From a virus (lineage: Duplodnaviria; Heunggongvirae; Uroviricota; Caudoviricetes), in IMG/VR virus record IMGVR_UViG_2660238209_000001: a stretch of 7,014 nt of DNA; one strand, written 5' to 3'. The position numbers were made by a program. Positions 1-3,000 of this stretch are shown here, piece after piece. Position 1 is the stretch's first letter. The number at the start of each line of letters is the position of its first letter.

Positions 1-3000
1 CATCAACAGGGAGTACAGGCGACTCGTATGACAACGCGATGGCTGAGAGCATCAATGGTCTTTACAAAGCGGAGGTAATACACCGTAAGAGCTGGAAAAA
101 CCGTGCAGAAGTGGAACTGGCCACACTCACGTGGGTGGACTGGTATAACAATCGACGATTGCTGGGAAGGCTGGGCCATACTCCTCCGGCAGAAGCAGAA
201 AAAGCTTATTATGCTTCCATCGGAAACGATGATCTGGCAGCCTGAGTTCACAGATAAAACACTCTCCAGGAAACCCGGGGCGGTTCACAGGCAGGTGAAA
301 GTGAACCAGTGTCACCGGTACCGAAAGTGACAGCGCAAATGCTGACTGAGGCGATTGAACAACATGGCCCACAAACGGCGGATGAGCTGGCACTGATGTT
401 CGGGATTACCTCCCGCCGGGCGAATTCATCGCTGGCCATGGCAATCAGCAAAGGGCGTCTGATTCGCGTGAATCAGGGCGGTAAATTTCGTTACTGCATA
501 CCGGGCGCTGATTTACCGGCAGAGCCGGAAGCTGCATCCGTAGCGGAAACCGATGGTAAAGCCTTTCCTCAGCCAGCAGGTGTTGCGTTACCAGTCCAGG
601 AAACGACGACACAGGAAGAAATGAAAACAGAAATCGTGGAAGACATTGTGAAGTTACAGCCATCGGTCACCGAAACGAAAGCAGATGACCTGATTCTACC
701 ATCGCTGCATGTGGCTAACCGCGAGCTGCGCCGGGTAAAAGGTCAGGTTCAGAAGTGGGAGCGAGTCTGCGCCGCGCTGCGGGAGCTGAACAAGTGCCGG
801 GATATTCTCCGGGATATTACCGCCACCAGAGAACAGCAGCGGTGAGTGGGTGGAAGACGTGGTGCCGGGCTGAAATTCTGATACTCCGGCAGTGCGCGGG
901 AACAATGAAGGTAAAAAGCATTGGCGCGCTTATCGGACGAACTGAAGCGGCAGTGAGAACGAAGGCACGGGAGCTGGGCATCAGCATGATGTTACGTGGT
1001 GATTTTCACCCGTCGGCAAAATATTCACAGCGTGATATTGAGCTGGCGCGGCAACTGCATCAGCGCGGTGTACCCCGACGGGAAATTGCCGAAAAGTTCG
1101 GAATGAAGTTGCGTGCAGTGAATAACTACGTTTATTTCGACAGGAGGGTTCAGGCGTGAGGGTGAGAATTTATATCGCCGGTCCAATGACGGGATATGAA
1201 AATTTCAACCGCGAGGCATTTCACAGGGCGGAAGAAGCACTGAAACGGGAAGGGCATACCGTCTTAAACCCGGCAGTACTTCCGGACGGGCTGACACAGC
1301 CGCACTACATGGATATTTGCATGGCAATGATTCGTTGTGTGGATGCGGTTTATATGCTGAATGGCTGGCAGCGGTCAGCGGGCGCTAAGGCAGAGCTGGC
1401 ACTGGCGGAGAAACTGGGGCATGCGGTGATTTATCAGGAGGTGGCTCAATGAGAGAGGTTAACTATGAGGCGCTTCGTGAGGCAGCACAAAACTATCAGT
1501 CGACGCTGGCGTGGTATCAGGCTATCCCGGACAGCCCAAATGCTGAACGGGATTGTGATGCGGCTCTTGCTGCGTTTAAGCGTCACATCCGTCATCGGGA
1601 AGCGGATATTATCGCTGATTTGCTGGATGGACTGGAAGAAGCAAAATCACAACTCAACGAGCAACGTGAGTATTACGAAGGTGTTATCTCGGATGGGAGT
1701 AAGCGCATTGCTGAACTGGAAGCGCGGGAAGTTCAATTACCGACTCGCTACGACCTTCGATATGGACACCCGATAAATGCAGATGAGCGACAAGTCATGA
1801 TACCTAAAGAAAATGGCAGTTGGCTTTACCTGATTGACCTAGAACACGCATTACGCGTCGCTGGCATTCGCATCAAAGGAGAGGAGCATGGAAATAAAAC
1901 CAGAAGATGAGTTAAGTAATATTGTTTTATTTCCGGTAAAAGAGGATGACCCACGTAATCAGGTTAATTTTCTTTATGAGCCATCGGAAAGACCATACTG
2001 CCATCACGCCTCTGTCCGGGTTGACGAAAAAGAGCGTCAGGTCCGCTGTAAAATCTGCGGTTCAGTTGTGGAGCCGTTTGACTGGATGCTCTCTGTGGCG
2101 AAAAGAGAAACCAGACTGGCAGATGATGTAAAGCTATTGCGCCAGGAGGAACAGGAAAGGCGAAAAAATATAGAAAAGTTAATTCAGATTGAGCGTAACG
2201 CGAAAGCGCGGATACGCAGGGCGTCAAAATCCAGAACTGAATAATTAAATTCAGCACTGTTAAAAATTTAATCCTTAACCGGAGGGATTCCTGCACCCTC
2301 AGAACATAAGGAGACCGCCTGAAAGGGTGGTAATGAAAAATGACTGAATTAACCAAAGAGCAATTAATCAAGGAAGCCAAATTAAAAATAGCGGTTGCGA
2401 ACTGTTACCCTAATTCAGAGATGGCCAGGGTAGAGGGTGAGCTATTCAAAATTGCACTGGCATCGCTGGAAGCAGAACCGATAGCGTGGGAATGCGGTGA
2501 AAACATAATCCTGTTTAACCCTGACACAGTTGAAGCATACGCAAAACGTGCGGAAATATCACCTAAACCACTATTCTCCGCGCCGCCAGCGCTGGTAGTG
2601 CCTGATAAGTTGCCGCGTGAATACAGAAACGGTTGGCCTCTTGCGTATAGTGATTATGCTGAAGGCTGGAACGACTGCCGCGAAGCCATGCTTCAGGGAG
2701 ATAAATCATGATTAATCGTATCAAGCTGGAGCACATCCTCGAATATGCCAGGCAGCAGAGGCATATTGGTCAGCATTGTAAAATTCCACCAGGAGATATG
2801 GTTGAAATCATGGAGATTGCCATGCGCAAGGCTGGCAATTCTCCGGTAACTCCGGATGGTTGGATAAGCTGTAGTGAGCGAATGCCGCCAGTTGGTGTTG
2901 ATGTACAACTGTTTGTGTCCAGCACGGGTGAACAGTTTACAGGTTTTAACCTGGATAATACGGGTGACTTCCAGTATGCGCAGTGTTTCGGTGCGCCCAT

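Follow-up and report, generated by a model that had tools for sequence, protein, structure and literature searches.

The window analysed here is a stretch of 7,014 nucleotides of the Caudoviricetes virus record IMGVR_UViG_2660238209_000001, and its positions 1156..1452 (+) hold an open reading frame with a GTG start which encodes a protein of 98 amino acids plus stop, beginning with MRVRIYIAGPMTGYENFNREAFHRAEEALKREGHTVLNPAV. The motifs IYIAGPMTG (residues 5-13) and VLNP (residues 36-39), by which an earlier reading, made without database searches (the sequence-only reading), had picked out this gene, are present exactly as claimed, and a Shine-Dalgarno sequence AGGAGG can be read directly at 1142..1147 (+), 8 nucleotides 5' of the start codon. 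The protein is a member of the Pfam family DUF4406 (PF14359), whose profile it matches over the full length (positions 2-91 of 91; 126.8 bits, E=4.5e-37; curated gathering cutoff 22 bits). It also matches phrog_355 (E=1.1e-47), labelled 'nucleoside 2-deoxyribosyltransferase', and RefSeq lists the same coding sequence as WP_001444682.1, 'DUF4406 domain-containing protein'. An NCBIfam scan of the protein and an Rfam scan of the window gave no match, and a direct search of the PDB with the single sequence returned nothing meaningful, only a profile search being successful.

The gene is under purifying selection, with a median ratio of nonsynonymous to synonymous substitution (dN/dS) of 0.11 among 50 distinct related copies, and all 79 related copies are intact. 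Of 5426 complete Escherichia coli genomes, 1206 carry the gene at a DNA identity of at least 80%, among them genomes with prophages of enterohaemorrhagic strains, with up to four copies per genome. Single-protein scans of genome contigs gave close relatives only; in a global protein library, the family comprises 12,239 clusters at 50% identity (E<=1e-3), and 532-685 GenBank phage records contain a member, the hosts being Escherichia, Vibrio, Aeromonas, Pseudomonas, Rhizobium, Arthrobacter, Gordonia and Mycobacterium.

A confident AlphaFold2 model (pLDDT 95.1, pTM 0.87), with 55 diverse DUF4406 members as input, consists of β1 (residues 4-8), α1 (15-31), β2 (35-37), α2 (48-60), β3 (64-67), α3 (75-87) and β4 (90-93), a minimal version of the nucleoside 2-deoxyribosyltransferase (NDT) superfamily fold with Rossmann/flavodoxin-like alternating β and α elements and a parallel sheet. 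The top match found by Foldseek is the NDT of Trypanosoma brucei (2A0K, E 3.6e-5), with further NDTs, MilB and DNPH1 ranking behind it, and the DUF4406 family profile finds 2A0K full length by sequence alone (E 4e-4). The NDT-like fold, which the sequence-only reading had assigned from motifs, is consequently correct, and the interpretation of the gene in that reading is supported.

Conservation was counted in 248 non-identical DUF4406 members. Conserved in at least 95% are G9, G13, F22, P39 (98%), P43, Y51, M58, L68, S74 (247 of 248), G76, A77 and E80, the presumptive catalytic glutamate, which is retained by 246 of the 248. Residue 6 is Tyr in 90% and Phe in 8% of the members, 95% have Thr or Ser at position 12, and R19 and D53 are found in 89% and 69%, respectively. 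Residues 38-52 form an invariant loop with the pattern NPAxLPDGLxQxxYM. Equivalences to characterized enzymes were derived from the 2A0K profile match, from hhalign comparisons with DNPH1, NDT and the DmtZ domain of Arthrobacter phage Wayne gp53, and, independently, from a MAFFT alignment in which six DUF4406 proteins were combined with DmtZ, DNPH1 and NDT, the sequences of human DNPH1 and Lactobacillus leichmannii NDT having been verified against the PDB chains beforehand. Although no hhalign comparison with a single sequence is significant by itself (E 0.08-0.17; DNPH1 E 0.17, DmtZ E 0.084), all alignments give identical residue equivalences in the overlapping regions, and, as an internal check, MAFFT places the established acids (D80 of DNPH1, D72 of NDT and the Asn of DmtZ) in one column.

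According to these alignments, Tyr6 (codon 1171..1173, +), located after strand 1 where a Tyr or Phe orients the glutamate in NDTs, corresponds to Tyr24 of DNPH1, Tyr7 of L. leichmannii NDT and Tyr6 of DmtZ. The loop Gly9-Pro-Met-Thr-Gly13 after strand 1 (1180..1194, +) aligns with G27-S-I-R-G31 of DNPH1 and is proposed to bind phosphate. In the catalytic loop Ser74-Ala-Gly76-Ala77-Lys-Ala-Glu80 (1375..1395, +), Glu80 opens the helix after the last core strand as the nucleophile of NDTs does and is the predicted nucleophile; it is equivalent to E104 of DNPH1, E98 of L. leichmannii NDT and the Glu of 2A0K and DmtZ. G76 is invariant across the DUF4406, DNPH1, NDT and DmtZ families. Ser74, the small uncharged residue six positions before the glutamate which marks a 5'-phosphate site in nucleotide glycosidases, is equivalent to the 5'-phosphate-binding Ser98 of DNPH1 and to the Ser of DmtZ, while nucleoside transferases possess Asp92 in this column. 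Pro39 (codon 1270..1272, +) is paired with a proline of Wayne DmtZ, which may correspond to Pro57 of the DmtZ of Gordonia phage Ghobes, and with the water-activating Glu55 of DNPH1, an equivalence of low confidence as it lies in a loop.

Two characterized enzymes provide the ground for a mechanistic proposal. DNPH1 uses the triad Y24/D80/E104, of which E104 forms a covalent deoxyribose-phosphate intermediate and E55 activates water, while the phosphate is strongly bound by S98 and by S128', the latter from a helical extension of the partner subunit (PMC10603095). The phage-encoded, NDT-like DmtZ releases adenine from dAMP and transfers the deoxyribose 5-phosphate to 2-aminoadenine, activity being abolished in the Y6A and E103A variants (PMC12884076). 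By analogy, we lean towards the reading that the DUF4406 protein is a minimal NDT-superfamily enzyme which splits a 2'-deoxynucleoside 5'-monophosphate (dNMP) at its N-glycosidic bond, possibly with base exchange, and in this way probably trims the nucleotide pool in phage replication; the preference for phosphate and deoxyribose, as much as the chemistry and the biological role, is what we infer. The 5'-phosphate would be held by Ser74 and the Gly9-Pro-Met-Thr-Gly13 loop, and Glu80, oriented by Tyr6, would attack C1' with departure of the base and formation of a covalent deoxyribose-5-phosphate-enzyme intermediate, to be resolved either by water, as in a hydrolase, or by another base in a phosphodeoxyribosyl transfer as performed by DmtZ. 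Expressed with genes for replication and recombination from a rightward early operon, the enzyme would thus act on a particular dNMP of the infected cell, removing or remodelling it.

Three points limit the confidence in this proposal. The general-acid position, an Asp or Asn eight residues before the Asp preceding strand 3 in NDTs, is occupied by Cys55 (codon 1318..1320, +), and corresponds to Asp80 of DNPH1, Asp72 of NDT and the Asn of DmtZ. The position is not fixed in the family, being Cys in enteric members and Ala, Ser or Gly elsewhere (82% Cys and 8% Asp among the 248 members), with Asp in the actinophage members of Yeet, ZoeJ, ChotaBhai, Brylie and Crewmate. D53 was considered as a substitute general acid and covaries with position 55, but approximately 25% of the members lack a carboxylate at both positions. 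Furthermore, the C-terminal segment which reaches into the active site of the partner subunit is absent, as the protein ends at the aligned residue ~117 of 174 in DNPH1 and ~111 of 157 in NDT, with the reference proteins running 45-80 residues past this end. In NDTs, this segment holds Asn123' and the C-terminal carboxylate, which complete the neighbouring active site. Finally, the literature on DUF4406, PF14359 and phrog_355 yielded no functional study, in agreement with the statement of the sequence-only reading that no activity is known for the family. DUF4406 proteins could have their own way to complete the active site, which does without the C-terminal segment provided in trans and has Cys, Asp and Ala as interchangeable residues at the acid position.

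Gene fusions offer indirect information on the substrate. Gp156 of Mycobacterium phage Yeet (248 amino acids) is a true fusion of a DUF4406 domain (residues 28-111, E 8.4e-22), which retains the Tyr, Ser, Gly and Glu and possesses the canonical Asp at position 55, with a C-terminal pyrophosphohydrolase of the MazG/PRA-PH type (PF01503, 22.9 bits versus a cutoff of 21.3; residues 124-247 match phrog_671 'nucleotide pyrophosphohydrolase', E 3.3e-34). The whole length of gp156 matches phrog_12019, so the Yeet-type fusion is a family. Fusion to an enzyme that produces nucleoside monophosphates mirrors the association of DmtZ with DutZ and, by this analogy, argues for monophosphates as substrates.

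The invariant serine and the fusion bear on the function given by PHROGs and many phage annotations, namely that of a true nucleoside 2-deoxyribosyltransferase, exchanging bases among free deoxynucleosides. Besides the phrog_355 label, the NDTs as best Foldseek and profile matches, the precedent of phage PF05014 NDTs with purine transferase activity and the alignment of the invariant Pro39 with the DmtZ proline, which may be the equivalent of the transferase-type Pro57, are compatible with it. However, the Asp that binds the 5'-OH group (Asp92 of L. leichmannii NDT) is replaced by the invariant Ser as in the nucleotide-specific DNPH1, MilB and DmtZ, the PF05014 score stays below the cutoff, the C-terminal segment is lacking, and the fusion partner in Yeet yields nucleoside monophosphates rather than nucleosides, which makes transfer between free nucleosides quite unlikely. 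That the protein is a non-catalytic module binding nucleotides or DNA (DprA is a member of the superfamily), or that it regulates another early protein, is very unlikely, since the near-absolute conservation of the Glu, the Tyr and the Ser-x-Gly motif in the 248 members is hard to explain without catalysis, and so is the fusion to a nucleotide-metabolizing enzyme.

SARM1 and bacterial TIR NADases are likewise among the structural neighbours of the model. The catalytic Glu of these NADases sits at the equivalent structural site, a circumstance that speaks for an NAD+ glycohydrolase. Early depletion of NAD+ would, though, harm the phage itself, the motif pattern is that of the NDT group and not of TIR domains, and the gene context holds no pointer to NAD metabolism, rendering this function extremely improbable. 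Another candidate, based on the TIR/SLOG-like side of the fold, is a counter-defence protein which destroys or sequesters a nucleotide-derived immune signal such as cyclic ADP-ribose isomers or cyclic nucleotides. Yet NDT-type enzymes outscore TIR and SLOG proteins in the structural comparison, the pattern Tyr...Ser-x-Gly-x-x-x-Glu belongs to the NDT/DNPH1 group, the known fusion joins the domain to a nucleotide pyrophosphohydrolase, and the gene resides among replication genes and not in known anti-defence clusters. In addition, the PADLOC defence-system models gave 0 families at E<=1 with the 98-amino-acid protein, and a link to anti-defence was not found in the literature. Such a role appears unlikely. 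A connection to defence is conceivable also for a dNMP glycosidase, as T5 Dmp removes dAMP and thereby blocks the dITP-based Kongming system, which relies on a dAMP-to-dITP pathway; speculatively, removal of a dNMP by DUF4406 proteins might similarly starve a nucleotide-based immune pathway of its precursor.

Other members of the family also carry additional sequence. ZoeJ gp54 (227 amino acids; L182:1626-2309), whose type has a PHROG of its own (phrog_15484), and Pseudomonas phage USP_18 gp37 (L089:2806-3339) combine DUF4406 with N-terminal extensions of ~125 and ~65 amino acids, respectively, without a Pfam match. A Pfam scan of 45 long close relatives (160-358 amino acids) found no informative partner domain, and the additional parts probably represent, for the most part, gene calls that extend too far or uncharacterized domains of phages. 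Two matches among viral structures bear the name 'dATP/dGTP diphosphohydrolase N-terminal domain-containing protein'. Most of the fusions that annotations imply do not exist. Thus, Crewmate gp31, Kepler gp54, Brylie gp65 and ChotaBhai gp111 were considered as fusions and rejected; they are stand-alone proteins of ~120 amino acids, and the labels 'MazG-like pyrophosphatase', 'deoxycytidylate deaminase' or 'hydrolase' on them represent annotation carry-over. Inconsistent labelling of stand-alone actinophage DUF4406 proteins of ~120 amino acids is observed at L002:3004-3372, L003:2977-3345, L095:2531-2887 and L183:1935-2309, with 'nucleoside deoxyribosyltransferase' as a further label, and 'MazG-like pyrophosphatase' was probably carried over from genuine MazG fusions, of which Yeet gp156 is an example.

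In the window, the DUF4406 gene is preceded by a gene for a helix-turn-helix (HTH) DNA-binding protein (878..1159, +) and followed by an Ead/Ea22-like gene (1449..1910, +). Its start overlaps the stop of the HTH gene (GTGA) and its stop overlaps the start of the Ead/Ea22-like gene (ATGA); therefore, the three genes are probably translationally coupled. Among 80 lambdoid loci, two alternative genes, one of them the HTH gene, are found upstream and at least six downstream. As the neighbours vary on both sides, a fixed gene partner was rejected. The window is 99.6% identical to a prophage of E. coli O111 and related genomes adjoining opp/cls/kch, which is cut off at the left by IS1203, the transposase gene ending at window position 245. 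The 3' end of this IS3-family IS1203/IS629 transposase gene (1-245, +) abuts a DUF1627 gene (285-845, +), listed by RefSeq as a pseudogene without N-terminus. From the truncation by IS1203 and the N-terminally incomplete DUF1627 gene it follows that the insertion element removed the immunity and replication region of the prophage and that the early genes of the window are without their native early promoter. On the + strand between about 285 and 3098, neither promoter-like nor terminator-like sites were found.

The intact phage Rac-SA53 has the gene order dicA/dicC, ydaT, ydaU and ydaV (replication), ydaW, lygF, DUF4406, ead and later Q, and the same logic is followed by a Vibrio prophage in which an S24-type repressor is succeeded by a rightward operon ending in DUF4406. 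Thus, the placement in a phage early operon, put forward by the sequence-only reading, is borne out by synteny. Across unrelated phages, DUF4406 genes are surrounded by genes for RusA, exonuclease, helicase, polymerase subunits and SSB/ERF/RecT, and further by those for dNMP kinase, pyrophosphatase and methyltransferases. Such neighbours from replication, recombination and nucleotide metabolism fit a role in the nucleotide pool, although the evidence is weak because early genes cluster anyway.

Further downstream, the window encodes a protein of 118 amino acids with a weak zinc-ribbon match (1888-2244, +; phrog_1621), which overlaps the end of the Ead/Ea22-like gene by 23 nucleotides. A RelE/ParE-family toxin (3267-3566, -) and a ParD antitoxin (3572-3829, -) are oriented opposite to the otherwise rightward early region, with promoter-like hexamers at 3892-3865 (-) just 5' of the pair. 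A DUF968/YdfU protein of 349 amino acids (4245-5294, +) shows a strong match to phrog_96 'HNH endonuclease' and a weak HNH-nuclease-like match in the C-terminal part. The Q antiterminator (5678-6499, +) has a match to a DnaJ-type CXXCXGXG zinc finger, and is followed at 6582-6597 (+) by a strong terminator-like hairpin with six G-C pairs and a T run, which is a candidate for a terminator under the control of Q.

In several unrelated phage lineages, DNA methyltransferase genes directly adjoin DUF4406 genes, namely at L004:4001-5309 (N15 gp57-gp58), L088:2354-3757 (Brujita gp55-57), L095:2531-3594 (Brylie gp65-66), L150:3380-4438 and L099:3438-4259. The methylases belong to two families, the C5-cytosine type PF00145 and a second type common to Brujita and Brylie. 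The adjacency is not seen in the lambdoid group of the window itself, and the two largest clusters of downstream neighbours in the N15-like set are unrelated to methylases; as a general rule it is unsupported, being confined to few lineages. It may reflect chance or a functional link to methylated nucleotides, and disposal of methylated or otherwise modified dNMPs might be an alternative role that would explain the recurrence of such neighbours. Phage N15 and N15-like contigs have their DUF4406 gene outside the early replication region, in a small terminator-flanked cassette directly after the lysis genes (gp56-gp57-gp58 in N15, L004:3798-5309), and in 23 related N15-like loci Rz is the upstream neighbour of DUF4406.

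The DUF4406 family and its link to the superfamily, the PHROG label included, are already in databases, and the present analysis is therefore not the discovery of a new kind of protein. New are the reasoned reassignment from a nucleoside transferase to a nucleotide glycosidase and the recognition that DUF4406 represents a truncated variant of the architecture in which the acid varies. Among the uncharacterized accessory families of phages it is one of the commoner, carried by about a fifth of complete E. coli genomes and, inconsistently annotated, by hundreds of actinophages, and the hypothesis of a dNMP N-glycosidase in which Glu80 is the nucleophile and Ser74 the phosphate site is specific and cheap to test. 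If it is true, no smaller catalytic unit would be known in the NDT superfamily, DmtZ-type editing of the nucleotide pool would extend from Z-genome phages to ordinary temperate phages, and hundreds of conflicting genome annotations could be corrected. The more far-reaching notion that DUF4406 proteins constitute a widespread, stripped-down class of phage enzymes, which remove or exchange the base of dNMPs with an active site completed in their own way in order to eliminate one specific dNMP, is doubtful.

Among the systems available for comparison, DUF1937 (PF09152; structural-genomics hypothetical protein PDB 1T1J), for which no functional study was found in the literature, is a separate Pfam family and adds no functional information. 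The CMP or hydroxymethyl-CMP N-glycosidases MilB, BlsM and BcmB share the superfamily, but MilB, a protein of ~160 amino acids from antibiotic biosynthesis, possesses Phe at the position of the Tyr, which confers ribo specificity, and uses Arg23 for the phosphate, both unlike the DUF4406 protein. MilB has S97 as the equivalent serine, and the exchange F17Y moves its preference to deoxyribose (PMC10603095). Compared with the NDTs of PF05014 (L. leichmannii 1F8X, T. brucei 2A0K, Leishmania mexicana 6QAI), the DUF4406 protein has Ser for Asp92, Cys for Asp72 and lacks the C-terminal 45-60 residues. With 16.9 bits (E 0.0071) it stays below the PF05014 gathering cutoff of 28.8, as do other DUF4406 members (25.0-25.5 bits), and on these grounds the protein is not assigned to PF05014; nor is it a member of the DmtZ family.

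DNPH1/Rcl (PDB 8QHQ, 4P5E, 2KHZ), a 2'-deoxynucleoside 5'-phosphate N-hydrolase of 174 amino acids, differs from the 98-residue protein by the helical extension which provides Ser128' in trans and by a shielding loop, as well as by Asp80 instead of Cys55 and Glu55 instead of Pro39. It is a sanitizer of eukaryotic nucleotide pools, in contrast to a phage early gene product, and the sequence similarity is, as noted above, not significant. DmtZ of Ghobes and Wayne, a phage-encoded member of the NDT superfamily acting on dNMPs, resembles the DUF4406 protein in the Ser six and the Gly four residues before the Glu (RSWGVPAE versus RSAGAKAE), in an acid position that is not Asp and in the proline that aligns with Pro39. 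Moreover, some phages carry DmtZ fused to an enzyme that hydrolyses dNTPs, comparable to the DUF4406 fusion of Yeet. DmtZ has Asn77 at the acid position and lacks the Asp or Asn that binds the 5'-OH group, a transferase-type Pro57 is present and a Trp of the partner subunit closes the site, while in Wayne the fusion to a dUTPase-like dATP/dGTP hydrolase leads from dATP via dAMP to adenine (PMC12884076). On the other hand, DmtZ, defined by a hand-made hidden Markov model (PMC12884076), is larger (~145-177 amino acids), with five strands and the Trp lid in trans, and has no Pfam match, DUF4406 included; membership of DmtZ in DUF4406 was rejected, as the Wayne domain does not match PF14359 and shows just the non-significant hhalign value. 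DmtZ is limited to diaminopurine (Z-genome) phages, whereas DUF4406 is found in phages with ordinary DNA including lambdoid prophages. By analogy, the DUF4406 protein would work most like DNPH1 and DmtZ.

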